DNA of 64,000 bases from Oligoflexia bacterium (GTDB taxonomy: Bacteria; Bdellovibrionota_G; JANQFH01), in the NCBI GenBank assembly GCA_028277945.1, contig JANQFH010000008.1:128742-192741 (forward strand). The letters are read 5' to 3'. A program made the position numbers and the translations under genes. The notes below the pieces were generated by a model. That model ran no database searches and was not told the DNA's origin. It was given only the letters and a program-made list of their open reading frames with translations. Positions 26,204-47,518 of the stretch are shown one piece after another. The stretch's first letter is position 1; the number at the start of each line of letters is the position of its first letter.

Positions 26204-26369
26204 GCTCTAATGAGGTCTTTGAGCCAGTTTGGCCTGTAAAGATTCATTTTTCAATGGGTTTTCACAAAAGACTATCTTATTAACTCGCTTTGATTATTTC
26301 GTACAACTCCGTCTACTTGACAGATCAATCGCCGATTTGTTAGTAGTTGTAGTTGAGGATTGACACATC

Positions 26370-27782: not shown

Positions 27783-27943
27783 ATAGCAGATTGCCAACGC
27801 GTTGGAATTGGATCAGGGTTATAATACCTTGAAATTTAAGGAGAAAGCTTTCCAAAGAAGGCTATTGACATACTGCATCGAAAATAATAGATTGCGTCAA
27901 TCACAGTTGACGTATCGCATAAAAAGCAAGCGTCAGCTCTAGG

Positions 27944-28177
27944 GTGAGAGACAACACACTTTACAAAAGACATCCGGAGGAAACAACCATGTCAAAGCAA
28001 CCTCAACACCCATCCCATCCATTCTCCATGCATTGGCGAGTGCTGCTGGCTCTGCTAAGTTGTCTTGGCTTCGCATCGTTTGCCTCGGCAGCTGATGTAG
28101 GAAATACCTATGACCAGGTAGATACGTTTCCTAGTACTGAGGAAGCCACGGCACAGTATAGGCTAACAACAGAGTAA
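27944..28177 (+). CDS. Small secreted protein (likely start at MSKQ, 27989)
   Basis: Signal peptide VLLALLSCLGFASFASAADV. Short ORF in an intergenic gap, same strand as downstream gene. Confidence 0.35.
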   Translation: MRDNTLYKRHPEETTMSKQPQHPSHPFSMHWRVLLALLSCLGFASFASAADVGNTYDQVDTFPSTEEATAQYRLTTE

Positions 28178-28189
28178 GCGCGACGCTTT

Positions 28190-30199: not shown

Positions 30200-30247
30200 T
30201 ACCCATTGTATAATTATGTAGAGTCTTTATCCTCCAGGTGAATCTAC

Positions 30248-31939: not shown

Positions 31940-31994
31940 CGCAAAAGCTTCGATCTAATGGGGTAGAGGAAAACCTATACCGAAAATTTACTAC

Positions 31995-32915: not shown

Positions 32916-32921
32916 TAAATT

Positions 32922-34061
32922 CTAAACAAGACTCTCTTCGTTGCAAAGCTTCCAAAATGGGATAGTTCGAATTCCACTCTTCACTGACCCACGATCAAGT
33001 TGACGACGATGTGTGCAATAGACACGCGGTATCTTAAGTAGCTCCCGGATACGCATTAAGTGGGAGGTCTCTCTTTTGTCGGAAAGTTTACATTCAACGG
33101 CAAACAGAGGCTTCTTTTTTTCAAGCACAATAAAGTCAAGCTCACGGCCGTCTCGGTCTCGAAAGTAGCGAAGTTCTGTACGGTAGCCTGCCGTATCTTG
33201 ACGGTAATGACAATACTTCAACAAATGACAAGCTACCATGTTTTCAAAACGTGTCCCTTCATCCTCGACTTGGGCCCAATCCCAAAGATAGAGCTTTGGC
33301 GTCTTTTTGATCGCACGAAGCTTTGAGGTGTGAAGTGGTAGAACCAAAAAAGACACGTAGATTCGCCCAAGAATATCAAGCCATCGTTTTATAGTGGCAT
33401 GACTCTTTTCCAGATCTTCCGCTAAACTATTGATAGATAGAGGTGATCCCACTCGTTCAGGTATTACATCAACGAGAAGTTCAAGCATCGATAAATCACT
33501 CACATTCTCAAGAGCGCTCACCTCTTCCTGAATCACACGTGTGATTCTCTCAGCACCCCAGCGACGATAAAACCTCTCGTCGGCCTTTAAGAATGGCTCT
33601 GGAAAGCCACCATATTTCAGCAGTTGGTCAACTGCCTTTGAGTCGCCAATTTCTGGAAGTGAAAGAGGATGAAGGCGATAGTAGTGATAGCGTCCTACAA
33701 GTGAATCGCCGCCTCTTCGATAGTAGTCCAAACGAGCCGAGCCCGTAACAAGACATTGACGACTTGGATAGAACTGGTCGTAAAAGCCTTTTACCAGCCG
33801 CCTCCAATGTCGGTACTTATGCACTTCATCTAAAACAATGCGCGATGGTGAGGCTGGAATCTGATCACGCCGAATCATTTGTCGGTGCAGAGGAATGTCC
33901 CAATTGAGGTAACCTTCATTCTCTTTGGTTGGTGGTGAGAGTAGTGATATTGCGAGAGTTGTCTTGCCAACCTGTCGTGGTCCACCAACGAGGACCAGCT
34001 TTTCTTTTAGGTCTCGCTGGATGTGCGCGGTCAAGTATCTTCTGGCAATTTTCATGTACAC
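32922..34061 (-). CDS. AAA+ family ATPase of the DUF4143 type
   Basis: Walker A LVGGPRQVGKTTLAISLL close to N-terminus; length and C-terminal DUF4143-like region; low-GC, mobile-element-associated family. Confidence 0.75.
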   Translation of the reverse strand: MYMKIARRYLTAHIQRDLKEKLVLVGGPRQVGKTTLAISLLSPPTKENEGYLNWDIPLHRQMIRRDQIPASPSRIVLDEVHKYRHWRRLVKGFYDQFYPSRQCLVTGSARLDYYRRGGDSLVGRYHYYRLHPLSLPEIGDSKAVDQLLKYGGFPEPFLKADERFYRRWGAERITRVIQEEVSALENVSDLSMLELLVDVIPERVGSPLSINSLAEDLEKSHATIKRWLDILGRIYVSFLVLPLHTSKLRAIKKTPKLYLWDWAQVEDEGTRFENMVACHLLKYCHYRQDTAGYRTELRYFRDRDGRELDFIVLEKKKPLFAVECKLSDKRETSHLMRIRELLKIPRVYCTHRRQLDRGSVKSGIRTIPFWKLCNEESLV

Positions 34062-34171
34062 ATTAGAATAGCCGCGGCAATTTTAAAATACAATTGAAAA
34101 AAGCCTAGATCATAATTACTTGATATTATTTAATTTTGCTGTGATTTCCTTCACCTTGCTGGCATAAGGAA

Positions 34172-34423
34172 GTGTTTCATGCAATCGATCGACTTAAATA
34201 TGAGGCCGAACAACTTGAGCATACTGTGACTTCGTTGGCTTTAGCTTGGAATCTCTACCATCCTTCCATAGCCGCTACGATAAAAGGTCCTAAAAGGGCA
34301 GAACACCTCGATGCAGTCAAGCGGGCGGTTAACAAACCACTAGATGAATTGCAATGGCAAAGCCTAAACGTTCTTTTTTCCGAGTGTATGCCAGACTTTG
34401 ATCTAAACAGGCTTCGTGGTTGA
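34172..34423 (+). pseudogene. C-terminal fragment of an aldo/keto reductase gene (gene remnant)
   Basis: 83-aa ORF whose product LALAWNLYHPSIAATIKGPKRAEHLDAVKRAVNKPLDELQWQSL matches only the C-terminal ~60 aa pattern (LA[WL]..P.V...I.G....E.L..N......L..E) of AKRs. No N-terminal TIM-barrel part is present. Confidence 0.45.
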
Positions 34424-34434
34424 GGCTCCAATTG

Positions 34435-34800
34435 TCACAAAAACTTTACCGCCGGCTTGAACCCGCCCCAAATCATACGCTTACTATCAAATGGTAGTTT
34501 TTTTTGCAGCATTGCTTTTTTAAGTCTTGGATCCTTTTGCACCTTCTTATTTATAGCATCCCGACTCGCCTTTGATTTGTATGTGATATAGGAGAAAAAT
34601 ACCACTTCACCTTTTTTTAGCTTTACTGCTTGAGGAAAAGAGGTCCATTTGCCTTTTTTGACGTCATCGGCAATACATTCGAAAACACTCAGAGCCCCAT
34701 GCTCCATCCAAACTCTTCCGCATAGCCTCGCCAATTTTTTGTAGTCATTTACTTTTCTTCTAGGTACAGCTATAAGAAACCCATCAACATAACCAGCCAT
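34435..34800 (-). CDS. DUF1428 (YbaA-like) family protein
   Basis: MAGYVDGFLIAVPRRKVNDYKKLA..HGALSVFECIADDV..GEVVFFSYITYKSKASRDAINKKVQKDPRL matches the conserved YbaA/DUF1428 pattern along full length (121 aa). Confidence 0.75.
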   Translation of the reverse strand: MAGYVDGFLIAVPRRKVNDYKKLARLCGRVWMEHGALSVFECIADDVKKGKWTSFPQAVKLKKGEVVFFSYITYKSKASRDAINKKVQKDPRLKKAMLQKKLPFDSKRMIWGGFKPAVKFL

Positions 34801-34864
34801 TTTCGTTCTCCCTTAAAATGTAAAATTAAATTATCAAACCCCGCTAATCTTCTTATCATAGTGA

Positions 34865-35149
34865 TGGAGGTGGCTTGAACCCACCTAACAAGAGACTCCC
34901 GCCGCCGGAAAAGCGAAGGTGCGATTCACTCGCGCCTGAGCGCGGGGTCTGGGGGCATCGACGAGGCGTTGAATCTATAATAAATACGAGAAGCGACCCT
35001 ACAGCCGAGGAGGGCCCCCAGCTAAAATGGAGGCGGCGGGAGTACCGTTCCCACTACGCGGGAACGTTCTCCTAAGGAATGGTTCATTGTAAGCGCCTCC
35101 AGTAAAGCATTGCTTCGCAATACTTTACTGGAGGCGGCGGGAATCGAAC
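34865..35149. repeat. Cluster of tmRNA 3'-end-derived att-core copies: tRNA-like TGGAGGTGGCTTGAACCCACC (34865-34885), inverted partial copy GACTCCCGCCGCC (34894-34906), TGGAGGCGGCGGGAGT (35028-35043), and the attL copy TGGAGGCGGCGGGAATCGAAC (35129-35149)
   Basis: Direct comparison with the ssrA 3' end TGGTGGAGGCGGCGGGAGTCGAACCCGCG at 44823-44851. Extended imperfect hairpin CCTCCAGTAAAGCATTGC-TTC-GCAATACTTTACTGGAGG at 35096-35135. Confidence 0.6.
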
Positions 35150-35247
35150 AGACGATTTAACCTATTGGTATTGCTGTTTCTACAATCAACTTTCGATGGA
35201 TGATGCCCCCATAGTTGCCCCCTGACCTGTTGGTTATAACTATGAGG

Positions 35248-35457
35248 TTATTTGCCGGAAACTGTGCGTCCAACACGATGATGGTTTAACGGTATCGTGA
35301 GTTTAGACGTACCAACTTGCTTGGCTATACTTGAATCTTCGGCCGTGCTCTCAATGATGTAGGGACTTGGGTTCTGTGTTACCCAAGCATTAGATAAACC
35401 CTTAGCTGAGGTTTGCTGTTTCTGAGCAGGGTCTTTTCTTTTTTGAGAATCTTTCAT
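35248..35457 (-). CDS. Small hypothetical protein (69 aa) at island edge
   Basis: ORF only; Lys/Gln-rich, no motif. Confidence 0.3.
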   Translation of the reverse strand: MKDSQKRKDPAQKQQTSAKGLSNAWVTQNPSPYIIESTAEDSSIAKQVGTSKLTIPLNHHRVGRTVSGK

Positions 35458-35516
35458 AGTTACTTCAACCTATAATTATAACAAATATCTCAATGAGTTA
35501 TCAAGGTCAAGTTCTG

Positions 35517-36620
35517 TCAGGACGACTTCTCCCATTGTGCATAGGTCTTCGGTGTACCTACAATGTAATCTAAGTCTGGTTTTCTTGCTGCGTAGACCTT
35601 ACCTCGGCTCACAAACTGTGAGGAATAACGGGTACTTTCAACAACGGCCTGAATAAGTTCAAAGTCCTGTGGAACACACTGTTGCGTTGCAATCTGATTA
35701 TTGCAGTAATTTTGCCAAAATTGCAGCAACAATTGCTGCGGCATATTCGAGGGTACATTCACCGTTGGCGGAGCCCCAATAAGAAATGCGTTGCTCGGAT
35801 CAGCCAAACAGACGCCAAGGGGGTCGAAAGGAATCCTCATCTCCATTTGGCTTTCAAGGTCTAAATAGACTTGCCAAAGCAGCTCGTCCAAGGTTTTGTC
35901 ATTTTTGGCAATCTTCAACCCCAAGTCTCTTGCTTCTTTGGGAGACACTGCATGGCCGTGACTAAAAAAACTTCTATTCAATTTTTCAGCAATTGCATCT
36001 GCTTTAGTCGCATCAGCCCCTGTCATATGCATCTTTAACAGGCGCTTTGCCATAGTTACTGATTGTCCTGATGATCGTTTTGATGCACCCAAGACTGTTG
36101 GTTTCACTTCCTTTACCAGATGCTCAAATAGCTGAGCCAAATAGGATTGTTCCGAAAGCTTGCCTTCCTCCTCAAGAAATTTTGCGAAGGCGACTATATC
36201 TTCGTAGGAAAACCCTTGCTGACCTTCCTTTGTCGTAACTGTAATTTGGGGGTCAACCGGCCCTAAACAAGCCATAGGATGCATATAGATCTCATCTGCT
36301 CCAAGCGCTATCAATGTAGCCGCACTAAACGCATAATGGGGCACCAAAACTCCTATTTTTCCTTTGGTTCCTATCTTTTCCCGAATCAGGGACATAATTC
36401 GCCATGATGCCAGCCCGTCTCCACCAGTACTGTTAATAACAATATCCAGGTCGTCAGAGTTTTTGGGAAGAACATTCAACTGGTCGATAAATTCCCTAAC
36501 TGCATCAGCAGCGATTTGGCCTGGAGCATTTCTTCGTCCGCTGGTTGCATATGTGATGAGCGGTCTTTTCCGATGAGTTTCTATCTTCTCGTAAATCTTT
36601 TTTCGTTCTGTCAACGCCAT
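35517..36620 (-). CDS. ClpP/SppA-fold (crotonase-like, S14/S49 / SDH-family-like) serine peptidase, 367 aa, island cargo
   Basis: DLDIVINSTGGDGLASWRIMSLIRE (INSxGG oxyanion/nucleophile-elbow region of ClpP/SppA) and catalytic-Ser-like context HYAFSAATLIALGADEIYMHPMACLGPV; about 150-aa C-terminal extension. Confidence 0.6.
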   Translation of the reverse strand: MALTERKKIYEKIETHRKRPLITYATSGRRNAPGQIAADAVREFIDQLNVLPKNSDDLDIVINSTGGDGLASWRIMSLIREKIGTKGKIGVLVPHYAFSAATLIALGADEIYMHPMACLGPVDPQITVTTKEGQQGFSYEDIVAFAKFLEEEGKLSEQSYLAQLFEHLVKEVKPTVLGASKRSSGQSVTMAKRLLKMHMTGADATKADAIAEKLNRSFFSHGHAVSPKEARDLGLKIAKNDKTLDELLWQVYLDLESQMEMRIPFDPLGVCLADPSNAFLIGAPPTVNVPSNMPQQLLLQFWQNYCNNQIATQQCVPQDFELIQAVVESTRYSSQFVSRGKVYAARKPDLDYIVGTPKTYAQWEKSS

Positions 36621-36789
36621 GATATCAACATTTCCTCTTGAGGCTTCTCTTAGCCGATTAGTGAACCAAAGACCTCCAAAAATAGGTTAGATTAGTATGT
36701 TTGACAAGAGGCCTGTCTAATTTAGTCAAGTAGGCTGATACATGTAGAATAACAAAGAGTTATCTATTCTGCACTATCCAATAGTCTAT

Positions 36790-37596
36790 TCATTTTCCGT
36801 TAGGTGAATTTTGCCTAGCTTTGTCAAGCAAGTTGGCCAACATACTTAGAAATCCTATGCACTGTAACGCATTTTCTGGCGTATCTGGATCAAGTGTATG
36901 TGCTCTGGGGTTTCTGAACGCTAAAACTGCACCTTCAAATAAGTGCATGATTCCTTCCTGTTCATCTTGATCTGATTGATCTTTCGCTTCATTGAAAGCA
37001 AGCACGGGTTTATTTTTTGAGAATACAGTCCTCATTAAGGGGGCACCATCAAGATCATGCCGCCTTGACTTTTCTTTGACATAGTTGACTAAGGCTAAGC
37101 AAGCATCTAACACTGCATTGCGATAATGGCCATTACGAAACAAATCGGCTGAAACAGCGGAGATACGGGGGTGTAGTTCGAGACCTTCAAAAGTTATACG
37201 GGCTCGTATAGTAGGATCAGAGTCGGCATCTTCAAGATTCTCCTTAAGGTCGTTTATCAGTCCTTCCAATAACTTGACTGTTTGTGGAATGCCATTTGTG
37301 AATCTTCGTTGAATTTCGGATTGAGTCATCATCATATGCATTGGCCCGTGCCAAATCTGATGATGCTGGTTATCTTGATACTGACGAGACTGTGTTCCAT
37401 AAATTCCTTGGATTGTCGAGACAATTTGTCTTTCAATGTTGGTCACCGCCTGATCATCTGGCCGTATATTTTGTGGGTCTAGCGCTTTTACGTCAGCGAT
37501 TCGTCGTCTTAGCTTTTTGATTCCTTTCTTGATTTGGTCGGCTGTAAGCTGTTGATTTTCAGGTTCAGGATGTTGGTATGATCTTGTTGGATGCAT
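36790..37596 (-). CDS. Candidate HEPN-domain protein (TIGR02391/Hypoth_Ymh-like, Abi-associated) with C-terminal Rx4H motif
   Basis: C-terminal AVLAFRNPRAHTLDPDTPENALQCIGFLSMLANLL contains R-N-P-R-A-H (Rx4H), the HEPN RNase signature; helical protein of 268 aa; island cargo next to XRE regulator. Confidence 0.5.
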   Translation of the reverse strand: MHPTRSYQHPEPENQQLTADQIKKGIKKLRRRIADVKALDPQNIRPDDQAVTNIERQIVSTIQGIYGTQSRQYQDNQHHQIWHGPMHMMMTQSEIQRRFTNGIPQTVKLLEGLINDLKENLEDADSDPTIRARITFEGLELHPRISAVSADLFRNGHYRNAVLDACLALVNYVKEKSRRHDLDGAPLMRTVFSKNKPVLAFNEAKDQSDQDEQEGIMHLFEGAVLAFRNPRAHTLDPDTPENALQCIGFLSMLANLLDKARQNSPNGK

Positions 37597-37654
37597 TTAT
37601 AAAGCACCTTTCTAAGTGTTATCTTGAACCCATAGACGCAGGCTTACAGACTTA

Positions 37655-37933
37655 CTACCTAAACAGTGTCTTGGGATCAATACCAGAAGCTTTACATATG
37701 CGCCAAATAGTCATGAGGGTAGGGTTGCCTTCGCCTTTCTTAATTCGAGCAACATAGCGAGGATCTAGCCCAGCAAGCATCTGTTTTCTTTGGCTCATTC
37801 CAGCCTTTTGCAACGCATCAATAAGGTTTTTGCGAAACCGCTTGGAAAAGGTTGCATATGCTTCTTTATAAGCCATAGCCGACTTATAAATAGCCATGCA
37901 ATATCTGCCTATGGTATAATAGACCATAGGCAC
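37655..37933 (-). CDS. XRE-family helix-turn-helix transcriptional regulator (likely start at MAIYKS, 37897)
   Basis: QRKQMLAGLDPRYVARIKKGEGNPTLMTIWRICKASGIDPKTLF is a typical XRE/Cro-type HTH. Confidence 0.7.
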   Translation of the reverse strand: MPMVYYTIGRYCMAIYKSAMAYKEAYATFSKRFRKNLIDALQKAGMSQRKQMLAGLDPRYVARIKKGEGNPTLMTIWRICKASGIDPKTLFR

Positions 37934-37965
37934 CCCTAGAGATTTTCCAGAGCCGGAGGTAGCTT

Positions 37966-38388
37966 TTGTTCAAGTTTCAGCTCATCGCACTACTGCTCTT
38001 TCCGCTTATTGCTTCCTCAGGGGAGACAGCGGTTGTTCCTAAACATAAGCCGTCGGCTTACAAATTTGTTGTCTTGAACTACCGAGTTATTGATGGGGAT
38101 ACCATCGATGCAACCGTTGACCTCGGTTTTCATATCACCAAGACGGATCGTTTTCGCTTTCTTGGTATGGATGCCCCTGAGATAAACCACGAAAAGACTC
38201 GTCAAGCCGGCCAAAAGGCAAAGCAATTCGTCATCAAAAAATTAGCAACAGCAAAAGTGATTGAAATTGAGACTTTCAAACAGGGTAAATTTGGCCGGTA
38301 CTTAGCTACTATCTGGCTAGATCAAAACTACAACAAATCACTTAACCAACTGCTGTTAGATAGAAACTTGGCAATCCCCGTGAAGTAG
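37966..38388 (+). CDS. Secreted staphylococcal-nuclease-like (SNase/thermonuclease) protein
   Basis: Signal peptide LIALLLFPLIASSGE. VIDGDTIDATVDLGFH...RFRFLGMDAPEINH...GRYLATIWLD matches the SNase OB-fold active-site region (R..G.DAPE). Confidence 0.7.
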   Translation: MFKFQLIALLLFPLIASSGETAVVPKHKPSAYKFVVLNYRVIDGDTIDATVDLGFHITKTDRFRFLGMDAPEINHEKTRQAGQKAKQFVIKKLATAKVIEIETFKQGKFGRYLATIWLDQNYNKSLNQLLLDRNLAIPVK

Positions 38389-38402
38389 GAGTAGGAAATT
38401 AT

Positions 38403-39065
38403 ATGGATAATAGTCACAGGCAAAACGTAATGATATTAAAATTAATTTTGTCTTTTGTCGGGCTCGCCGTGATGTTTGCCTGCTGTTCGGTTTACTGCAA
38501 TAGGCCAGCACAGAAAGCTGAGGACAAGAAAGTCATGAAAGAGCATCACAAAAGATTGAAGGAGGGCGGCAATAAACAGCAGAACCTCAAAAAAGGGGAA
38601 GCGCGTCGAAATGCGCCCAAAAGAGAGATTTCTAAGACTGGGGGGCCGTATTTTCCTGGCTTGAATGCCTCTGACATCTATCTCAATCTGAAAAAACGTG
38701 GTTTCGATTGTGTTGGTCCTAAATCCAGCAAAATCGGTGTTTCCTGGTACTGCCAGGACGAAAGGTTTTCAACTCGTAGTTGGAGTGTAACAATTCGTGG
38801 AGAAGGATACTCGCAACTAACATTTGTCACAGCGACGAGCCTCAATTATGGGAAGGGGTCATCTGATGAGATAGCACGGGAGTTTCTTGGCTTTGTAGCT
38901 TCGTTGCCCTATGAAGGTGCAGAACCAGCTAAGGCAAAGGCGTGGGTACTGAGAAATGTTGGAAAGAGAAATGTCTCCTACCGCATTGGAGCGGCAAGAT
39001 TCGAACTTTCTTCAAACGCGAGAGCGCGGATTTTGGACATCTCGGTTGTCTCAGATTCTAAATAG
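38403..39065 (+). CDS. Membrane-anchored/lipoprotein-like hypothetical protein (220 aa)
   Basis: N-terminal hydrophobic segment ILKLILSFVGLAVMFACCS followed by Lys-rich region; no motif. Confidence 0.4.
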   Translation: MDNSHRQNVMILKLILSFVGLAVMFACCSVYCNRPAQKAEDKKVMKEHHKRLKEGGNKQQNLKKGEARRNAPKREISKTGGPYFPGLNASDIYLNLKKRGFDCVGPKSSKIGVSWYCQDERFSTRSWSVTIRGEGYSQLTFVTATSLNYGKGSSDEIAREFLGFVASLPYEGAEPAKAKAWVLRNVGKRNVSYRIGAARFELSSNARARILDISVVSDSK

Positions 39066-39073
39066 CAGTTGCA

Positions 39074-39619
39074 TCAATCCAAATCCTCTTCGGTAAATTG
39101 TCGTTGGGAAGAATTGAGGCAAGACGTTTCGAGCTGGACTCTTGATCTCCAAAACTTGATAAGCGAGTCGTAGATAAACTTTTCATGCTCTTGATTAGGC
39201 AAAATGAACTCACATTGAAAATCCATTTCTAGTCGAAACGCCTTCGCAAGAGGTTCGGCCTGGGTTAGCATTTTATCTGGTTCAACACCGATTTTTTTGC
39301 AGAAGCGGCGAAACCCACTCTGGACAGCTATAAGTGTTCCGAATGCCTCTGTTATCTCTCCAAACGCATCCTCGGTAAACACTGCTAGGGTATAGCGATG
39401 ATATGCCTCCCACCAGAATAGATTCACAATCATGCAAAGCTCGCGGCAGATATTAAAATAACCGAAGAACTCCATGTCGCGAGCTAGATATGCCCTCTTA
39501 GGGCACGTACTAAAGAGTTTCGTGATTTCCTCATTGTCTTTCCGAAAACTACTGTCCAAAACCAGTAAGAATCTCTCCCATACGGTTATGTTTTCGTAGT
39601 GCCGAGTGACGCCTTTCAT
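39074..39619 (-). CDS. Hypothetical island protein (181 aa), translationally coupled to upstream gene (ATGA overlap)
   Basis: ORF; 4-nt overlap with 39616-39933. Confidence 0.45.
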   Translation of the reverse strand: MKGVTRHYENITVWERFLLVLDSSFRKDNEEITKLFSTCPKRAYLARDMEFFGYFNICRELCMIVNLFWWEAYHRYTLAVFTEDAFGEITEAFGTLIAVQSGFRRFCKKIGVEPDKMLTQAEPLAKAFRLEMDFQCEFILPNQEHEKFIYDSLIKFWRSRVQLETSCLNSSQRQFTEEDLD

Positions 39620-39933
39620 TTTGCTCCATTCCTTTGGCTCAAAATTTCTTCAAGCGCCTCAACCCTGCCAACTATCTGTACAGCCTCAACCGCTCGAAGA
39701 GCGATGCCGGCAAGATAACCAATAGTACGTGCTCGCGCTATTGTTTCCACTTTAGGATCAGATTTTACCGTTTGGACCTGCTCTTCAATTAGTAATAAGA
39801 CGTCCCTAGCCGTTTGAAGCCGAAAAGAAGAAGGTATCTGGGTTTGACACGGGGTTTGACTACTTCCAGCGCGTTGCAGCTGCTTGTATTCGCGCTGATA
39901 GTTCCTGCTTTTCTCTGGGTCTTTGTAGGGCAT
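39616..39933 (-). CDS. Hypothetical island protein (105 aa) immediately downstream of primase gene
   Basis: ORF starting 3 nt after the primase stop. Confidence 0.4.
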   Translation of the reverse strand: MPYKDPEKSRNYQREYKQLQRAGSSQTPCQTQIPSSFRLQTARDVLLLIEEQVQTVKSDPKVETIARARTIGYLAGIALRAVEAVQIVGRVEALEEILSQRNGAK

Positions 39934-39936
39934 GGG

Positions 39937-42444
39937 TCAGCTTTCCATATTAGATCCAAGGTTTTCTAATGTTCCGCTAGTTGGCGGAAAATGGGAAAGA
40001 TGGGAAACTTGATGCCATTCTCCAAATACTTGTTTCTCTTTTTTCCCTTTTTCCGGCAACTTTAAGAGCAAGGGACTAACACGATAAATGGTGGTCGGTT
40101 TTCGGGTAGCCACTCTTTTTGGCTTACTGATTAAGTTGCGATCACTTAGAATCTTTAGTGCACACGTCAAATGTTCCGACTTTCCAAATTTTCTATGGCG
40201 CATGGCTGAGGTAAGCTGCGTGCGAGTAAATGAGGGCTTTCCTTGTGCCATAATCCATTGGAAGATCTCTTTTGCATTTTCGACTGTTTGATCTGCTCCC
40301 ATCAAGCCATAGGCTGCAATCATATGCTCTGTGAGCAGAGCAGCTATTGTTAGGGCCTTTGCCATTGTCTCTCCAGAAATAACGAGCTGCTCTTGGTCAT
40401 AATTCCCAACATGCAAAATTCCCGCTAGACGAAGAGCAAACCCACATATTTTCCCGCCACTACCCAGACAAGGTGCTAGCCTGCCATCTGGTCGAAGCTG
40501 AGTTTCTATTTTCGCTTGAAATTCACGCCATTCTTGAAGAGCTTCAGGTGAAAGAGTTAGAACATGGCGTCGATCTTGGTCTTCTTTGGGCAATGACGGA
40601 AGGTCTAGCAGCATTTTAATCTTTTGGTGGTAAGCTTGCCGAGCTTCCAAAGGAACCGGCGGCTTATCATGAGTGCGATATCCGAGTTTACTTTTTGGTA
40701 TGACAAAGAGAAAACGTTCTAACATTCCATTGCCAGTAAAGGCCTTTTTAGATCTCATATTTTGGATAATGACGGGCTGCACAGTCAAAACAATCGTGAG
40801 AAAAGGTGTTATGTCAAAATTACGGTCTTTACGTCGAATCCTTACGTGTCCACCATCGATTCCCTTCAACAAAATATCTACGTTTGCCGAACCCCCGGTG
40901 TAAAGGCCGCTCATGGTCTCGACAATGCCTCCCTCATCTGAAAATATAGCGAAATGCCCTCCTTGCTCATAAACGCTATTAGCAAGCGCCTCAGGCGTTG
41001 TATCGTTAGAGAATAGCTGTGGCAGGGCTTGGGGTTCAATTAAAGATATCTCTTCCTCGGCGATTTTGTTGATTAGTTCTCGTTGTTTTGAAGCATCTTT
41101 TTCCCGTGCGGCCTTAGCCCTTAGGGATTCGATAATTTTCTCTTGGCTTTTTCGTTCCGAGCGCTGCCGTTTGATTTCGGCCTCTAAAGTTTGTGCTTGT
41201 TCACGTTCCCAGCTTATGAGTGGTTCCGTACAGTTATTAAAGACCTGTGTTTTATTATTTGCTGGGGGGAGAGCAATAAGTGTGTAAATATTAAGGGACT
41301 CACGCCAACCATCCTTCGGACTGACGACAAAGTGTTTTGCTGCCGCAGCCGATACCGTGCCAAGAACGCACATTACAGCCAGAGCCTCAGGGACTTCTGT
41401 GGACGTAGCAAGTGCCGCGGCAAATTTTCCGAGCACACCTGGCAAAAGGTCCGCTGGAATATCTGGTGTCTCGATCTCCTCAAAGAGGATCGGATCGTCC
41501 CACAGGCCGGAATCATCCTTTCGTGGGGTTGAGAACTTGATCCATTCCGACGGTACGGCGTGTAAATGATGCTTGATAGCATCAAGCAATCTTTCTTGTA
41601 TTTTTGCCCGCATCGGATGATCGTCTAATGAGGTCAACTCGTTCCAGTCAGTAAGTTCGGGTTGCTGTTTTAGCCAGTCGCAAACGTCCCCTTTTTCAGG
41701 CAACCCAGGCAGGCGAACTACTTTCATCACTGGTGCTGGTTTGCAATCCTGTATGATCCGCCAAACCTTTTTGATATAGCCTTCTCCCGCTTTGTCATTA
41801 TCTGGGGCGAGGTATATAAGGCTGACACCTTCCAACTCCTTCCAGTTAGTAAGATGGGCGCTACTCGCACCAAATAAACTTGTTACACACTGAAGACCGA
41901 GCCCTGCAAAAGCTGCTTGCTTTTTCTGCCCTTCAACCACGACAATAGCGTCATTCTTGTCTGTAAGAGTATCGAGTCCAATGAGGGGGTAACCGTTCTT
42001 TTTCATCTCCTGTGGTATGCCGGGCAAGAAACTTTTTCCGTTGGACCGGTAAAAGGGAATGTCCTCTTTGGGCTTGCCATTTCTGCCGGGAGCAAACCGT
42101 CTGATTTCGCCGATCACTTGACCGGTCTTATCCCGGTGTTCCCAAACAAAAATAGGGTTAGCCATTTTGCTATTCCAAGCTCCAAGTGCCAGTGCGGCCT
42201 CCTTGAAAGATTGCTGGTGCCGCTTCATTTGAAAACTAAGCACGTCGCCGCCACGCGCCCCGCACGCCATGCAACGATAACAACCGATACTAAGGTGTAC
42301 TCGCAGGGATGGTTTGTGATCGTCGTGGAAGGGGCAAATAGCCGATCTCCACTCACCGTTGCCAATCAACTTGAGGCCCTGAGCGTGGTAATAATCCGCA
42401 GGGTTTGGAAGGCGATCACGTGCAAAGCCGAATTGAGTCATTCG
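39937..42444 (-). CDS. Phage/plasmid (P4-type) DNA primase: N-terminal CHC2 zinc finger + Toprim domain + large C-terminal DUF3987-like domain (likely start MTQFGF at 42444; track start 42495 overlaps alpA)
   Basis: CPFHDDHKPSLRVHLSIGCYRCMACGARGGDV (CHC2 zinc finger). IVVVEGQKKQAAFAGLGLQCV...YLAPDNDKAGEG (Toprim E/DxD). Long C-terminal domain. Confidence 0.8.
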   Translation of the reverse strand, partial: RMTQFGFARDRLPNPADYYHAQGLKLIGNGEWRSAICPFHDDHKPSLRVHLSIGCYRCMACGARGGDVLSFQMKRHQQSFKEAALALGAWNSKMANPIFVWEHRDKTGQVIGEIRRFAPGRNGKPKEDIPFYRSNGKSFLPGIPQEMKKNGYPLIGLDTLTDKNDAIVVVEGQKKQAAFAGLGLQCVTSLFGASSAHLTNWKELEGVSLIYLAPDNDKAGEGYIKKVWRIIQDCKPAPVMKVVRLPGLPEKGDVCDWLKQQPELTDWNELTSLDDHPMRAKIQERLLDAIKHHLHAVPSEWIKFSTPRKDDSGLWDDPILFEEIETPDIPADLLPGVLGKFAAALATSTEVPEALAVMCVLGTVSAAAAKHFVVSPKDGWRESLNIYTLIALPPANNKTQVFNNCTEPLISWEREQAQTLEAEIKRQRSERKSQEKIIESLRAKAAREKDASKQRELINKIAEEEISLIEPQALPQLFSNDTTPEALANSVYEQGGHFAIFSDEGGIVETMSGLYTGGSANVDILLKGIDGGHVRIRRKDRNFDITPFLTIVLTVQPVIIQNMRSKKAFTGNGMLERFLFVIPKSKLGYRTHDKPPVPLEARQAYHQKIKMLLDLPSLPKEDQDRRHVLTLSPEALQEWREFQAKIETQLRPDGRLAPCLGSGGKICGFALRLAGILHVGNYDQEQLVISGETMAKALTIAALLTEHMIAAYGLMGADQTVENAKEIFQWIMAQGKPSFTRTQLTSAMRHRKFGKSEHLTCALKILSDRNLISKPKRVATRKPTTIYRVSPLLLKLPEKGKKEKQVFGEWHQVSHLSHFPPTSGTLENLGSNMES

Positions 42445-42446
42445 TT

Positions 42447-42650
42447 TTACCTTTTTGGGCCCTTTTGTGATTGTGTTATGCGCTCGGTGATCCAATGGTC
42501 AACTTCACTGGAGATCCATGCAACGGACCGTGATCCAAGCCGAACAGGTTTTGGAAAATCGCCGTCGGCTATCTTTTCATAGAGTGAGGACCGAGGAAGG
42601 CCAGTTAGGGCCTCGACTACTCGTCGGCGAAGCAGTTTTTTTGTATCCAT
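42447..42650 (-). CDS. alpA: AlpA-family phage regulatory protein / excisionase-like MerR-type HTH
   Basis: LLRRRVVEALTGLPRSSLYEKIADGDFPKPVRLGSRSVAWISSEVDHWI is the canonical AlpA/Xis pattern. Confidence 0.8.
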   Translation of the reverse strand: MDTKKLLRRRVVEALTGLPRSSLYEKIADGDFPKPVRLGSRSVAWISSEVDHWITERITQSQKGPKR

Positions 42651-42753
42651 TGTTTTCTCCAGTGACAGATATATTCAGATAATTACGGAAGCCTTCGGAA
42701 ACTTCAACAGTTCAGGGAAGGAGAAACCACCCGAAGAAAAATAGGACTGGTGT

Positions 42754-43422
42754 CTACTTGAAATCTAAGTGTTTTTTTCTAAATGACGGGGTGTTGGCTG
42801 GTAGTGTTTTGTTGATTCGATTCTTGATTTGATTTGGCGAAAGCAAAAATTTTCGGAATTTAGGAGGGTAAAAACTCTCTATCGCCTTTAACGCCTCGGC
42901 AGTTAACGAGAACGCTTTATCAGCGTATCTCCTGATCCCATCCATATCCATTTCCTCATTGATGACATCGGTAATCTTTTTGAGCATTATAGTAAAACCA
43001 CCAACATCGGTGAATTTACGTTTCCCTTTTGGGAGAGTCTTGTTGTCAGAAGAAAATTTTGTATAATCCAGTCTCGTTTCATAAAGATAACTAAAAATCT
43101 TTTCCGCCTGCCTCCAATCCTCGACAGAAAAGGGCTGTGGATCAGCTTGCCTCATAGCGCAAAACGCTATGATTTTTTTTAGTTCACGGTCTGTTACGTC
43201 AAAACCAAGCCTGTCTTTTACGATGGAAGAGGAGTACAAATCGGCATATTTTAACGTTAGCTTATGCAGGTCTATGCTCAGAATTTTTGCAATTGACCGC
43301 AATGTTTTGGGTTTTAGAGAAGATAGTCTTTCATTTTGATGAAACAGTTTCACATAACCATCTTCACGCTCTTTCCGAAATTGAGCTTTTGTGTACTTAA
43401 ATCTATAGGAGAAATCAGTCAT
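42754..43422 (-). CDS. Hypothetical island protein (222 aa), start overlaps integrase stop by 4 nt
   Basis: ORF, Lys-rich, no motif recognised; translationally coupled to int. Confidence 0.45.
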   Translation of the reverse strand: MTDFSYRFKYTKAQFRKEREDGYVKLFHQNERLSSLKPKTLRSIAKILSIDLHKLTLKYADLYSSSIVKDRLGFDVTDRELKKIIAFCAMRQADPQPFSVEDWRQAEKIFSYLYETRLDYTKFSSDNKTLPKGKRKFTDVGGFTIMLKKITDVINEEMDMDGIRRYADKAFSLTAEALKAIESFYPPKFRKFLLSPNQIKNRINKTLPANTPSFRKKHLDFK

Positions 43423-44579
43423 ATTTTTTGGATGTTGCTTAGGCTAGCCATACTTTGCAGAGAAATCACTTGGGCCCCTCTCTTCAAATTATCAAGATAG
43501 TCAGCCCATTGCTGCATCATTTTTCTTCGCTCGACGAGGTGAGCGGTGCGGTTATAGGCTCGTCCGTTGGGATCGCGGACAGCATGGGCCAGTTGGTGTT
43601 CGATGAAGTCAGGGCGGACGCCTAAGATTTCATCCAGCATGGTGCGCGCCATGGCGCGAAAGCCGTGGCCGCTCATTTGGTCTTTGGTGTAGCCCATGCG
43701 TCTCAGGGCGGCCAGAACAGCATTATTGCTCATCGGCCTGGTGTTGGTACGCATGCTGGGGAAAACATAGCGGCCATCACCGGTCACCTGGTGAATCTCG
43801 CGCAGAACTGCAAGAGCTTGCCTTGATAGGGGAACCAGATGCGGTTCGCGCATCTTCATGCGTTCGGCTGGGATATTCCATTCAGCGTGGTCAAAGTCGA
43901 TCTCTTGCCACTGTGCTTTGCGAAGTTCACCAGGCCGGACAAACACCAAGGGAGCTAGGCGCAACGCGTACTTCGTCACAATAAAACCTTCGTAGTCGTC
44001 AATGGCACGTAGTAGCCCGCCAACATCGTTAGGGCTGGTGATTGCAGCTAAATGTTGTTTTTTGACTGCTGGTAAGGCACCACGCAAGTCATTGGAGATA
44101 TCTCGCTCAGCACGACCTGTTGCAACGGCATAACGAAAAACCTGTCCGCAGTTTTGCAAGACCCGATGGGCGGTTTCTATGGCTCCACGTTCTTCAATGC
44201 GACGAAGCGCTGTTAGCAGTTGAGGTGGTTTGATGTCGGCAATAGGGTGTTTACCGATCCAAGGTAAGATATCCTTTTCAAGTCGCTGCAAGATCCTGTG
44301 GCCATGGCCTTGGGACCAGTTATGAGAATTTTTGGCAAGCCATTCTCGCACCACCACTTCAAAACTATTAGCTACTTTCTGTGCTCTTGCTGCTTTAAAG
44401 GCTTTGCGGTGTTCGCTAGGGTCCACATCATCGGCGAGCAACTTCCTAGCTTGAGTATGACGTTCCCTGGCATCTTTTAGGCTCACGTCGGGATAGACAC
44501 CGAGAGACAACCGCTTTTCTTTGCCATCAAAGCGGTATTTGAAGCGCCACCACTTGCCACCGGTTGGAGCTACCTCCAA
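43419..44579 (-). CDS. int: Tyrosine site-specific integrase (P4-type)
   Basis: N-terminal arm-binding region (WRFKYRFDGKEKRLSLGVYPDVSLKDARE); catalytic region HGFRAMARTMLDE...IEHQLAH...AYNR with R..H..R..Y arrangement; located next to the ssrA 3' end. Confidence 0.9.
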   Translation of the reverse strand: MEVAPTGGKWWRFKYRFDGKEKRLSLGVYPDVSLKDARERHTQARKLLADDVDPSEHRKAFKAARAQKVANSFEVVVREWLAKNSHNWSQGHGHRILQRLEKDILPWIGKHPIADIKPPQLLTALRRIEERGAIETAHRVLQNCGQVFRYAVATGRAERDISNDLRGALPAVKKQHLAAITSPNDVGGLLRAIDDYEGFIVTKYALRLAPLVFVRPGELRKAQWQEIDFDHAEWNIPAERMKMREPHLVPLSRQALAVLREIHQVTGDGRYVFPSMRTNTRPMSNNAVLAALRRMGYTKDQMSGHGFRAMARTMLDEILGVRPDFIEHQLAHAVRDPNGRAYNRTAHLVERRKMMQQWADYLDNLKRGAQVISLQSMASLSNIQKI

Positions 44580-44822
44580 ATAGAGGCCACCGCCATCGAA
44601 GAGACGGTAGATCTTCTCACCAGGTTTGGCGTTTCTTATTTTTACATCGGTTAACGGAATGGGGGCAACTCCTATTTGTTAAGCTTGAGTGCTCCCCATA
44701 GTTGCCCCAATTGAGAACCGGATGTCAATGGAAAGTTTCGGACCTTCTTGGACTAAATAGTTATCAAAATTAAGTGGTTAAAGACGTTTTCGGACTTTCT
44801 CGGACACTATCGGACTAGTAAA

Positions 44823-45176
44823 TGGTGGAGGCGGCGGGAGTCGAACCCGCGTCCGAAAGTCTCTTGGAGACAGGCAGCTACATGTTTAGCGCGTGATTTA
44901 AGTCTCGCACCTTAAAGCTCCCACGAGCAGGATCTTAAAATGCCAGCCCATCAAAAGTCTCATTGCTAACGTGATTGGCGCCGCTAGCAACCAGCCTGCT
45001 AGTTTTGCGCCCCAGCCCCTGTAGCAGGCGTCGGAGGTGAGACGTGGCTGTCAATTAAGCAGCCAATGCATAGTTGTCAGTGCCAACTATGTTTTTTCCA
45101 TCCGTTTTACGAGCAGACGGAACCCTCGACATGCTCCTGAATCCTTGATGACCCCCGTCGAGACCACATCGCCCCC
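44823..45176 (-). ncRNA. ssrA: tmRNA (transfer-messenger RNA), about 354 nt
   Basis: 5' end GGGGGCGAUGUGGUCUCGACGGGGG and 3' tRNA-like end GGACGCGGGUUCGACUCCCGCCGCCUCCACCA. Internal tag reading frame ...GGC ACU GAC AAC UAU GCA UUG GCU GCU UAA (predicted tag ending DNYALAA). Adjacent to smpB. Confidence 0.9.
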
Positions 45177-45258
45177 TTGTCCTGGGTTATTCATCACGGC
45201 AACGTGCTGCTTATCGTGAATTATAACCGTTACGAGTGTTATCAAGCAATCCGCTTAG

Positions 45259-45735
45259 CTATTTTCGTCGCTTCTCCTTGGCCTTTCTGAGCTCCTTTCG
45301 CGATGCCTCGCGATCGATGACATCCCGTTTATCATACTTTCTCTTGCCAATGGCAAGGGCGATCTCCACCTTGGCCTTACCATGATCGTTGAAGTAAAGC
45401 TTTAAGGGAATCAAGGTAAAGCCACGCTCATCAACCTTGCTCTTGAGACGGCGGATCTCCTCCTTTTTCAGTAGCAGCTTGCGTCGTCGCAGCGGCTCAT
45501 GGTTGTAGCGATTGCCTTGGGCAAAAGGGGAGATGTGTACGTGGTAGAGATAGGCCTCGCCGTTTTCTATGCTGACATAACCATCGCCGAGGTTGGCGCG
45601 GCCGAGCCGCAGCGACTTTACCTCAGTGCCCTGAAGCACCAGGCCCGCCTCCATGGTGCGCTCAATTTGATAGTTGCGGCGGGCACGTCTATTTTGACAG
45701 ACTAACTGCATGGGCTTAAGGTTCTTTAATAGCAA
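45259..45735 (-). CDS. smpB: SsrA-binding protein SmpB
   Basis: 158 aa. RRARRNYQIE..LVLQGTEVKSLR..YLYHVHISPF..LLLKKEEIRRL..LIPLKLYFNDHGKAKVEIALAIGKRKYDKR matches SmpB throughout. Confidence 0.9.
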   Translation of the reverse strand: MLLKNLKPMQLVCQNRRARRNYQIERTMEAGLVLQGTEVKSLRLGRANLGDGYVSIENGEAYLYHVHISPFAQGNRYNHEPLRRRKLLLKKEEIRRLKSKVDERGFTLIPLKLYFNDHGKAKVEIALAIGKRKYDKRDVIDREASRKELRKAKEKRRK

Positions 45736-47518
45736 ACTTCTTGATCTTACTCACCAAAGTACGACGGGGTACTTTGAGTAGCTGTGCTGCCTTGGTCTGG
45801 TTCCATCCCGTCTTTTGCAACGCCTGGAGAATGATCTGCCTCTCAAAGTTTTGCACCAGAGTTTTCATCTCACCCATTATCGTGGCATCGCCGCCAAGAT
45901 GGGGTTGTGGTTTGGGGGTGGCTGAACCTGCTGTGGGCAAGTGGAGGTTCTCTGGAAAGATGGTCTTGCCGGTGGTGATGACCACAGCGCGCTCTACACA
46001 GTTTTGTAGTTCACGAACATTGCCTGGCCAGCTGTACTGTGCCAGCAATTCTTTCGCAGCTGCAGCGAACTTCAGCTCAGGTTTTTGGTAGGCTTCACGG
46101 TAGTGATCAAGAAAGAACTCTGCAAAATGGGAGATCTCGTTGAGGCGTTCGCGTAGCGGCGGGATCTCCACGAGCATACCGTTGAGACGGAAGTAGAGAT
46201 CCTCACGAAATAGCCCCTTATCAACAAGCTGCTTAAGGTTCTTATTCGTCGCACAGATCACGCGGATATGCACGGCAATTTCTTCAACAGCGCCCACGCG
46301 GCGAACGACGTTTTCCTGCAAAACACGCAGCAGCTTAGCCTGTAATGAGTTTGGTAGCTCGCTGATCTCATCGAGAAAGAGGCTGCCACCGTGGCACGCC
46401 TGGATAATGCCAACCTTTGCCGTGCTCGCGCCAGTAAAGGCACCCTTTTCATGGCCAAAGAGCTCGCTCTCCAACAGCGCCTCTTGGAAGGCACCACAGT
46501 TAATCGCCATAAACGGACCGTCGACAAATTTACTCTGTTGGTGAATGGTCTGTGCCACCAACTCCTTTCCCGTGCCGGTCTCGCCTTGGATCACCACTGA
46601 GATCGGCGTTGGCGCAATCTGCATCACGGTTTTATAGACCGCTCGCATCTTGTGGCTGTGGAGAAGGATCTTCTCCTGAATAAACGAAGGGTGGGACCGC
46701 TGCGCGCTACTAGCACCGTAAGAGCTGCCGCTCTTACCCGAGAGGCCCTTGAGCTCCATCCATATGGGTTGCCGACTTCTCTCTATCAGCTGGTCACGGC
46801 TGTTGCCATCGTTAGGATAGGTTGCCAACCCTACTTTGAGGCTGTGGCGTATGTTGAGATGCTTCATCAACTTGTGGATAAAGCGTCGAGCCGCCTCAGA
46901 CGAAGTCTCCGGCAGTAAGAGTTCGAGATCCCGCTGTCCGTAAGTGGCGAGCAAGTCCATCATGCGTAACTTTTCAAGAACTTTACGGGTGATGCTGGCC
47001 ATATCGGTCTGCTGATCGCTAATGTGCAGCATAACAATGGTGAGGTTGCGCTGGTAACGATAGGCGCGGTCGATCTCTTCATCGACACGATAGAGAAAGA
47101 GGTCGTGGTTGGGAATGTTGTGCAGGCCAGATAGGGGGTTGTGCTTGTCGACCATGGTCAGACGCAGGGTGGTGAGGCCAAGTGAGACTTCATTACCATC
47201 TGCCAACAGCGCCTTTTTGATCAACTTGCCACCGATAAAGGTGCCATTGGTAGAGTCAAGATCACGCAGGACAATCGATGCGTTGGTGACTTTGAGTTGC
47301 AGATGGGTCCGGGAGATCTGCTCATCGTTGATTTGAACGTCACACTCTTGCGTCCGGCCAATGGTTATGCTGCCGGGGTAAATTGAGAAGGCTTGGCCTC
47401 GGTCGGGCCCGGCAGTGACGGTGAAAAAACCCACAGGTGTCCGCTGCAGCGCAGGTTTTGCTGCCTCAGCGCCGGCTGAGCCTTTGGACTTACGGAAGGT
47501 GCTCTCCTGTTTGGCCAT
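45716..47518 (-). CDS. Sigma-54-dependent transcriptional activator with N-terminal FHA domain and C-terminal Fis-type HTH
   Basis: FHA: GSITIGRTQECDVQINDEQISRTHLQL..STNGTFI. AAA+ sigma54-interaction domain: GETGTGKELVAQTIH, GAFTGA, LDEISELP. C-terminal HTH QTKAAQLLKVPRRTLVSKIKKF. Confidence 0.85.
   Translation of the reverse strand: MAKQESTFRKSKGSAGAEAAKPALQRTPVGFFTVTAGPDRGQAFSIYPGSITIGRTQECDVQINDEQISRTHLQLKVTNASIVLRDLDSTNGTFIGGKLIKKALLADGNEVSLGLTTLRLTMVDKHNPLSGLHNIPNHDLFLYRVDEEIDRAYRYQRNLTIVMLHISDQQTDMASITRKVLEKLRMMDLLATYGQRDLELLLPETSSEAARRFIHKLMKHLNIRHSLKVGLATYPNDGNSRDQLIERSRQPIWMELKGLSGKSGSSYGASSAQRSHPSFIQEKILLHSHKMRAVYKTVMQIAPTPISVVIQGETGTGKELVAQTIHQQSKFVDGPFMAINCGAFQEALLESELFGHEKGAFTGASTAKVGIIQACHGGSLFLDEISELPNSLQAKLLRVLQENVVRRVGAVEEIAVHIRVICATNKNLKQLVDKGLFREDLYFRLNGMLVEIPPLRERLNEISHFAEFFLDHYREAYQKPELKFAAAAKELLAQYSWPGNVRELQNCVERAVVITTGKTIFPENLHLPTAGSATPKPQPHLGGDATIMGEMKTLVQNFERQIILQALQKTGWNQTKAAQLLKVPRRTLVSKIKKFAIKEP

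Follow-up and report, generated by a model that had tools for sequence, protein, structure and literature searches.

A probable small integrative element at the 3' end of the tmRNA gene in an uncultured Oligoflexia bacterium

We analyzed a 64,000-nucleotide stretch of DNA (the window) from an Oligoflexia bacterium (positions 128,742 to 192,741 of contig JANQFH010000008.1, assembly GCA_028277945.1), in which an island adjoins the 3' end of ssrA, the gene for transfer-messenger RNA (tmRNA). The interval 35129-44846 is in all probability (about 0.8) the integrated copy of a small, self-replicating integrative element. An initial annotation, made from the letters alone, had described it as a P4-like element or phage-inducible chromosomal island (PICI) at ssrA. 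The label of an integrative element at ssrA is right, and that of a P4/PICI-like satellite overstates what the sequence supports. Islands with integrase, alpA and primase genes at ssrA are textbook mobile elements, so that the island is already known in kind and by itself changes little. What it offers is a clean example, delimited in full, from a lineage not yet cultured, with exact attachment (att) sites, candidate binding repeats, an older scar and defence-like cargo. A side lead of modest interest is a conserved, unannotated pair of open reading frames (ORFs), ORF105 and ORF181, a module that is common to free circular elements in several phyla.

Insertion at the 3' end of the tmRNA gene

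The tmRNA gene aligned with the Rfam model RF00023 over its full length (model positions 1-374, 186.9 bits). The 21 nucleotides (nt) of its 3' end that form the attL core are repeated at the far end of the island as attR, and no such match occurred in 100 dinucleotide shuffles. The repeat unit of the interval 35129-44846 is 9,697 bp. The initial annotation had claimed an integrative element at the ssrA 3' end with a duplicated tmRNA end, a 20-of-21 repeat between these two sites and a size of about 9.7 kb, and the full-length tmRNA gene, the shuffling result and the repeat unit bear out all of this.

In the tmRNA sense the shared block reads GTTCGA(C/T)TCCCGCCGCCTCCA; it includes the final G of the 5' T-stem, followed by T-loop, 3' T-stem and acceptor strand, and ends with the discriminator A, short of the encoded CCA. 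The flanks of the two copies differ directly beyond it: the tmRNA-side copy is followed by the encoded CCA, and the distal copy by GTAAAG and a 17-bp hairpin containing CTCCAG. The last ~24 nt of the tmRNA gene, encoded CCA included, now come from the island side of the junction. Judged from their sequence, the repeat and its flanks are the classical footprint left when an element integrates into a tRNA-like gene at its T-loop sublocation. The element brought a near-identical ~21-nt ssrA end together with the encoded CCA, and displaced the old end to the attR position. The junctions predicted for the excised state are listed in Table 1. After excision, ssrA would keep the G3-U pair and the discriminator and would lose the encoded CCA.

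The island is also atypical for the genome in GC content (0.454, versus 0.524-0.528 in the bulk of the window) and in tetranucleotide usage.

Table 1. Features of the island and its borders (window positions; features other than genes are given with their sequence where short)
Feature	Position	Strand	Description
smpB	45259-45735		directly upstream of the tmRNA gene
tmRNA gene (ssrA)	44823-45176	-	intact, single; ARAGORN, tag GTDNYALAA; Rfam RF00023
attL core	44826-44846	-	TGGAGGCGGCGGGAGTCGAAC; in tmRNA sense GTTCGACTCCCGCCGCCTCCA; 21 nt of tmRNA 3' end
attR core	35129-35149	-	TGGAGGCGGCGGGAATCGAAC; 20/21 identical to attL, T-loop C>T
attL junction, tmRNA sense			TTTCGGACGCGG-GTTCGACTCCCGCCGCCTCCA-CCATTTACTAGTCC
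attR junction, tmRNA sense			GGTTAAATCGTCT-GTTCGATTCCCGCCGCCTCCA-GTAAAGTATTGCG
predicted attP junction, tmRNA sense			GGTTAAATCGTCT-GTTCGAYTCCCGCCGCCTCCA-CCATTTACTAGTCC
predicted attB junction, tmRNA sense			TTTCGGACGCGG-GTTCGAYTCCCGCCGCCTCCA-GTAAAGTATTGCG
GTCCGA motifs	44738-44815	-	four, three at exact 10-nt spacing; abut attL on island side
15-nt motif	44694-44708	+	CCCCATAGTTGCCCC; ~120 nt inside attL
15-nt motif, second copy	35207-35221	+	CCCCATAGTTGCCCC; distal arm, ~60 nt inside attR
inverted 9-mer	44662-44670		AGTTGCCCC; near the 44694-44708 copy of the 15-nt motif
int	43419-44660	-	P4-type tyrosine integrase; Arm-DNA-bind_3 PF13356, Phage_int_M PF22022, Phage_integrase PF00589; PRK09692 7e-83 (NCBIfam)
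ORF222	42754-43422	-	ATG overlaps int stop as ATGA; predicted all-helical
alpA	42447-42650	-	AlpA-family helix-turn-helix (HTH) protein; PF05930 1.2e-21; 36% identity to CP4-57 AlpA
primase-helicase fusion	39937-42441	-	834 aa; CHC2 zinc finger, Toprim and DUF3987 (5e-88)
ORF105	39616-39933	-	unannotated ~104-aa family; MPYKDPEK..R..YQREY.. N-terminus, helical C-terminal part
ORF181	39074-39619	-	overlaps ORF105 by ATGA
ORF220	38403-39065	+	possible lipoprotein; N-terminal hydrophobic segment and Cys
nuclease	37966-38388	+	staphylococcal-nuclease-fold endonuclease; PF00565 7.6e-10; phrog_452 3e-30; signal-peptide-like N-terminus
XRE-type HTH protein	37655-37933	-	cargo or regulator; PF01381; PADLOC 'control protein' 3e-6
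Ymh protein	36790-37596	-	Hypoth_Ymh/TIGR02391 HEPN-type; PF09509 3e-31; motif RNPRAH (Rx4H)
SDH-type protease	35517-36620	-	ClpP-fold serine protease; PF01972 1e-19; phrog_11747 5.5e-44
promoter-like site	35504-35475		best sigma-70-like site of the region, 11/12 and extended TG; reads towards attR; upstream of ORF69
ORF69	35248-35457	-	no assigned function
older junction	35028-35128	-	16-nt fragment and 85 bp up to attR
third tmRNA-end fragment	35028-35043	-	16 nt, ACTCCCGCCGCCTCCA then TTTTAG; 85 bp beyond attR
inverted 13-mer of tmRNA end	34894-34906

Gene content, candidate binding sites and the left flank

Twelve ORFs, described here from the tmRNA gene outward, occupy the island nearly gap-free, and all were scanned against Pfam, PHROGs, NCBIfam and PADLOC. 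The core that the initial annotation had listed (int, ORF222, AlpA, a CHC2/Toprim-DUF3987 primase, ORF105 and ORF181) was recovered entirely on the minus strand between the att copies, with matching families. Its claim of translational coupling held for int/ORF222 and ORF105/ORF181, which overlap by ATGA, and failed for alpA, which follows a 104-nt intergenic region after ORF222, and for the alpA-primase and primase-ORF105 pairs, which are separated by gaps of 5 and 3 nt. The cargo said to follow the core is also present, with defence-like genes in the distal part.

The integrase gene starts 163 nt from the tmRNA end. Its product shares 37% identity over 400 aa with IntA of the E. coli island CP4-57, and the RPxE, HGxR, LAH and AYNR motifs align. 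The conserved N-terminus, (M)PLTDVKIRNAKP, aligns from residue 8 of E. coli IntA onward. The frame opens after the TAA at 44679-44681, and no ATG, GTG or TTG precedes the conserved PLTD N-terminus; the first canonical start, a TTG at 44579, would cost 27 residues of the arm-binding domain, and it is there that the automatic Logan gene call on an identical contig starts int (386 aa). The initiator is likely to be an ATT at 44660-44658, with AGGAG 8 nt upstream.

For ORF222, only four remote relatives were found among 1.84 billion representatives. An AF2 model built on this four-sequence alignment had a predicted local distance difference test score (pLDDT) of 73, and a Foldseek search with it gave no fold match (best E 0.4 in BFVD and 1.1 in PDB, TM-scores <0.25). 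AlpA is a putative excisionase or excision activator. The 834-aa protein matched phrog_2373 ('DNA helicase') at 1.5e-74. A PriCT-DUF3987 protein has been shown to act as a 5'-3' helicase (PMC11724360), and our alignment shows conservation of both its P-loop lysine and its SDE motif in the island protein; that protein is therefore best read, by this precedent, as a primase-helicase. It carries a C-terminal extension of ~35 aa (window 39937-40040) that is absent in homologues, and its residues 792-822 resemble the N-terminus of a separate ORF137 that follows the primase gene on an 8,636-bp circle (61% over 31 aa; L083, 5459-5560). This resemblance may be the trace of a fused gene or of a changed frame. 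ORF105 had no match in Pfam, in PHROGs or, by profile search, in PDB. ORF181 matched only itself in a word-based search, and folding it without an alignment gave an unusable model (pLDDT 43).

The distal ~4 kb form a cargo module with a GC content of 0.434. ORF220 had no family match in the four collections. The Ymh protein matched Aga_HEPN (1e-15), PD-Lambda-3_B (1e-10) and PDC-S35 (1e-6) in PADLOC, which makes it a candidate defence or toxin RNase. The SDH-type protease matched head-maturation proteases only weakly (1.9e-10, against 5.5e-44 to a PHROG without assigned function), and no capsid gene lies beside it. Homologues occur as a 'moron' between a Q antiterminator and a holin gene in an E. 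coli plasmid record with phage genes (Q, holin, terminase, portal), at the end of an operon of multiubiquitin, E2, ThiF-type E1 and DUF6527 on the Methylocystis bryophila plasmid pDSM21852-1 (2502-5801), and beside a gene for a large AAA-domain protein on a Chlorohelix plasmid. This distribution suggests that the protease family is a recurrent accessory or defence cargo. We considered Ymh and the SDH-type protease as a conserved two-gene system and rejected it, because the protease homologues in plasmids and phages have other neighbours. A defence or toxin function for the module is speculative.

Several short motifs lie just inside the att cores. The two copies of the 15-nt motif are candidate arm-type integrase sites. 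The window holds seven occurrences of GTCCGA, and four of them fall within the 78 or so nt next to attL given in Table 1 (Poisson probability ~4e-10), marking this cluster as candidate binding sites for AlpA or Int. We read both motifs as binding-site candidates because in the circularised element they would flank the core, as arm-type and excisionase sites do. More speculatively, the promoter-like site near ORF69 would read across attP into int once the element is circular.

The 11.2 kb to the left of attR (23900-35128) encode secreted, HEAT and TPR proteins without assigned function, a CAAX protease and an AAA_14/DUF4143 ATPase, along with a pseudogene remnant at 34172-34423 that preserves 83 aa from the C-terminus of an aldo-keto reductase. 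No integrase and no further att copy were found in this region. It may be an older, fixed island or other foreign DNA downstream of ssrA. Just beyond attR lie the 16-nt tmRNA-end fragment and the inverted 13-mer, both of which the initial annotation had missed. The simplest reading of the fragment is that it was the original chromosomal tmRNA 3' end, displaced by an earlier insertion that is now reduced to 85 bp; tmRNA genes ending in CCTCCATTTT are present in other bacteria, on metagenome contigs. The fragment pairs with the inverted 13-mer, 121 nt apart, and the region 34855-35130 between DUF1428 and attR has an unusually stable predicted fold, with a minimum free energy of -123 kcal/mol and z-scores of -7 (minus strand) and -4.8 (plus strand). 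Rfam gave no match for this region even at a cutoff of E <= 10, so a known RNA was rejected; candidate readings are an unannotated structured RNA, a remnant resembling a miniature inverted-repeat transposable element or a set of old att scars. Farther left, a 3,235-aa ORF rich in Ala, Leu and Arg occupies 14031-23738 on the minus strand. Other large ORFs of the window (~750 to >1,100 aa) lie at 3376-6477, 11735-14002, 56870-60229 and 61027-63813; the four of these other ORFs that were scanned had no Pfam match at 1e-5.

Circular relatives, mechanism and competing explanations

The DUF3987 module has many homologues at 55-73% identity, fused to varied primase domains, and their contexts are small integrative elements. 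One is a chromosomal island bounded by a perfect 46-nt tRNA-Thr repeat and carrying a reverse transcriptase as cargo; another, from Aquicella siphonis, has a 57-nt tRNA-Glu repeat at its borders. The closest relative of the primase (70% identity) is encoded on the 8,636-bp circle mentioned above. Two datasets contain this circle, with ends that overlap by 77 nt and 30 nt, and its attP is the 3' half of a tRNA-Thr(CGT) gene between direct repeats.

ORF105 has 107 homologues (38-66% identity, ~104 aa), all unannotated, in which the N-terminal motif MPYKDPEK..R..Y.REY is invariant. Their genes adjoin primase-helicase genes in related elements, and many are found on contigs of 7.5-11.5 kb. Three independent datasets contain one and the same 8,953-bp circle in exact rotations. 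It encodes an ORF105 homologue (66%) and next to it, again overlapping by ATGA, an ORF181 homologue (29%, E 4e-23), and also an integrase, an HTH_17 protein and a Prim-Pol-DUF3987 protein. A further homologue (52%) is encoded on a circular 'plasmid' record of the isolate Thermaerobacter sp. FW80 (NZ_CP037897.1; 8,456 bp in PLSDB). Once an untrimmed terminal duplication of 1,570 bp in this record is removed, the circle measures 6,886 bp. It codes for an integrase, a P4-family primase and HTH proteins, and PLSDB types it as non-mobilizable. No recognisable phage structural or transfer genes were present on the 8,636-, 8,953- and 6,886-bp circles. Because relatives with the primase or the ORF105/ORF181 module assemble as free circles of 6.9-9.0 kb, elements of this class are taken to excise or to persist as replicating circles.

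ORF105 is 50-66% identical across elements whose integrases and same-type primases share ~30% or less, and it occurs at GC contents as far apart as 45% (this island) and 69% (the host Thermaerobacter). Such conservation would fit docking onto a conserved machine of a helper or of the host, for example in packaging or in hijacking replication. A bolder proposal, which we put forward as unlikely though worth stating, is that the island represents a class, not yet described and crossing phyla, of 'minimalist' helper-dependent elements of 7-10 kb in which an exchangeable primase-helicase (CHC2/Toprim-DUF3987, Prim-Pol-DUF3987 or P4-family) is followed by ORF105/ORF181. On this proposal the cargo with HEPN-Ymh and the SDH-type protease could also hold a defence system not yet described. 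If ORF105/ORF181 did serve hijacking or replication control in a broad helper-dependent class, this would help to explain how 'Type C' islands (see below) move.

From these observations and from homologues with experimental data, a course of events can be proposed. Its first event, seen in the sequence itself, is the insertion: a tyrosine integrase recombined the element into the T-loop portion of the tmRNA gene. The later steps are hypothetical. AlpA, possibly with ORF222, would direct Int to recombine attL with attR, as its studied homologues suggest, and this excision would probably use the phased GTCCGA repeats, and the 15-nt motif found on either arm, as protein-binding sites. The excised 9.7-kb circle would then be replicated by the CHC2/Toprim-DUF3987 primase-helicase, again by homology, and the ORF105/ORF181 pair may act as accessory factors of replication or of hijacking. 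Because the element carries no transfer genes of its own, its spread from cell to cell would need a helper, by analogy most plausibly a phage. The ~4-kb distal cargo probably protects the host or stabilises the element.

Some results weigh against this reading. No empty site, attP junction or second host was found among 185,579 genomes and in metagenome scans. The absence of an empty site goes with a host that has no close relative among the 185,579 species representatives (an SmpB-based scan gave a best identity of 62%) and with island proteins that are limited to a single NCBI contig (514 kb) and one Sequence Read Archive run. The exact attP junction pattern had no match in the JGI metagenomes; the attB pattern occurred on 20 metagenome contigs of unrelated bacteria, which have only the ~30-nt tmRNA end in common. 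Neither a helper phage nor a packaging signal is known for the element. Because the conserved N-terminus lies upstream of the first canonical start, Int may be made weakly from a rare codon or may be N-terminally crippled, and the roles given to ORF222, ORF105 and ORF181 are drawn from their position and conservation. Finally, the left boundary is not sharp in composition. The contrast is sharp at the tmRNA side only, because the 11.2 kb left of attR are low in GC too (0.471) and deviant in tetranucleotide usage; the earlier description of the island as markedly more AT-rich than its flanks thus stands for the bulk of the window and for the tmRNA-side boundary, and not for the left side.

In an independent Logan assembly of run SRR20820740 the island forms a contig of its own (window 34955-44848), with the rest of the locus on contigs that cover 44829-46472 and end at 34966. 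One break falls within the att core and the other ~170 nt to the left of attR, with overlaps of 20 and 12 nt, respectively. We dropped these breaks as evidence of excision, since such overlaps are not those of a simple attB/attP branch at k=31 and no overlap exists between the ends of the contig; the split may reflect heterogeneity or a change of coverage at the junctions.

Of the competing explanations, ancestral chromosome with a 21-nt repeat arising by chance or structural duplication is extremely improbable. It has nothing in its favour beyond the lack of comparison genomes, and it has to face a repeat that shuffling never produced and that is the exact T-loop-to-discriminator block of tmRNA beside a P4-type integrase, as well as the deviant composition and core genes with homologues on mobile circles. 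An immobile remnant, a domesticated defence or cargo island retained for its accessory genes, is a more substantial rival, though in our judgement an unlikely one. The missing canonical start for the arm-binding domain of the integrase would fit such decay, as would the one T-loop position at which the att copies differ and a left region that looks like older degraded foreign DNA, with its low GC, truncated aldo-keto reductase and tmRNA fragment. On the other side, all 12 ORFs are intact, conservation extends to the catalytic motifs of Int and to those of the helicase, AGGAG-N8-ATT could plausibly serve as a weak start, and the repeats are identical at 20 of 21 positions, the single mismatch being equally explicable as an original difference between attP and attB.

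The remaining two explanations accept an integrative element and differ in how it spreads. That the island is a genuine phage satellite of the P4, PICI or PICMI (phage-inducible chromosomal minimalist island) kind, in which a helper induces alpA and excision, replication and packaging in helper capsids follow, is a real possibility that we place below an even chance; behaviour as a satellite dependent on a helper phage is possible by analogy. The int-iolg-alpA-prim(DUF3987) core is the set necessary for the life cycle of PICMI115, and PICMIs also do without capsid-remodelling and packaging genes (PMC10803314). The size of 9.7 kb is near the medians of PICIs (9.5 kb) and P4-like satellites (10 kb) (PMC10085698), the cargo is defence-like and relatives are found as free circles. 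Set against this, none of the 12 ORFs matched capsid, terminase, portal, Sid, Psu, Delta, relaxase or secretion components in the four family collections. ORF222, ORF105 and ORF181 had no phage homologue by tblastn against 50,697 phages, IMG/VR held no relatives of the primase, the SDH-type protease, Ymh or the ORF105 profile, and no prophage lies in the window. The P4/PICI-like label of the initial annotation is not supported as it stands, as Psu, Delta, Sid, epsilon, a capsid-morphogenesis gene and a small terminase (terS) were all missing by Pfam, PHROGs, NCBIfam, tblastn and fold search; capsid-remodelling or packaging genes, suspected among ORF105, ORF181 and ORF222, were likewise not found by family, by the phage search or, for ORF222, by fold. 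The element related to ours in the cultured Thermaerobacter isolate was deposited as a plasmid, which fits plasmid-like maintenance without phages. This same record, the other free circles and the absence of phage-related genes speak for an integrative plasmid-like element whose spread would need no phage and would rely on mobilisation by a conjugative element, on transformation or on vesicles. We nonetheless find this route improbable; Pfam shows no relaxase, coupling-protein or oriT-associated gene in the island, and the Thermaerobacter circle is typed as non-mobilizable. The integrated copy of a small, self-replicating element remains our preferred reading, with a phage as the most plausible helper.

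Comparison with known systems

The island resembles P4-like satellites and PICIs in its size near 10 kb and in its cargo in a distal hotspot, and P4 can also persist as a plasmid. The core of P4-like satellites consists of seven components, int, psu, delta, sid, alpA, epsilon and alpha (PMC10085698), and the island has only int, alpA and a primase. PICIs have a core of integrase, regulator, primase-replicase, capsid-morphogenesis gene and small terminase, of which at least four are present in Types A and B (PMC10085698); the island has three of the five, corresponding to Type C. In SatelliteFinder, int, AlpA and primase alone are 'Type C', which its authors set aside as ambiguous (PMC10085698). 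None of the capsid, portal, head-tail adaptor, connector and terL genes that mark a capsid-forming PICI (cfPICI) was found in the island, and its ORFs contain none of the Pfam domains of a relaxase, coupling protein or type IV secretion system that would mark an integrative and conjugative or integrative and mobilizable element (ICE/IME).

Among ssrA islands, those of Dehalococcoides have documented tandem accretion with multiple ssrA repeats (PMC3146451). Several repeat copies downstream of ssrA and a low GC content are common to them and to our island, but they use the serine recombinase DsiB and a different integration module.

The PICMIs of the Vibrionaceae are closer in layout. Like them, the island lacks capsid and packaging genes and has int, an ATGA-overlapping gene (their 'iolg'), alpA, a DUF3987 primase and a few accessory genes that include defence; its int and alpA lie together with a DUF3987 primase, and the PICMI gene definition asks for such colocalisation with a DUF3987 or DUF5906 primase. 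PICMI excision depends on int, alpA and the overlapping gene, and PICMI replication on the primase (PMC10803314). Integration next to fis is called their hallmark, they occur in Vibrionaceae only, and they average 6.7 kb (PMC10803314), whereas our island lies in ssrA, measures 9.7 kb and resides in an unrelated, uncultured host. A Fis-type HTH gene (48977-49681) is 4 kb off and not at the junction. The island is not a PICMI, because PICMIs are defined by fis-adjacent integration and confined to Vibrionaceae.

The CP4-57 island of E. coli K-12, with the order smpB-ssrA-intA-yfjH-alpA-yfjI(DUF3987)-defence/toxin cargo, shares with ours the target, the ssrA 3' end beside smpB, and the order of int, one unassigned gene, alpA, a DUF3987 protein and defence or toxin cargo. 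Features of this type of island that are present in ours are an arm-domain P4-type integrase beside the target RNA gene, a repeat of the 3' end and an intact RNA gene. Besides the 37% for Int and the 36% for AlpA, identity of the DUF3987 proteins is 22%. In CP4So of Shewanella oneidensis, another ssrA island with a P4-type integrase, excision requires AlpA (PMC5148205). CP4-57 differs from our island in its length of 22 kb, in yfjH being on the opposite strand, in a YfjI without a fused CHC2/Toprim primase, and in a repeat of ~14 nt at the extreme end of ssrA with CCA included, compared with 21 nt from the T-loop with CCA excluded. It has no ORF105/ORF181 homologues, and its cargo is unrelated. 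Taken together, these comparisons indicate that CP4-57-type ssrA islands, combined with the PICMI layout, are a better match to this island than P4-like satellites or PICIs, and are probably its closest known relatives.

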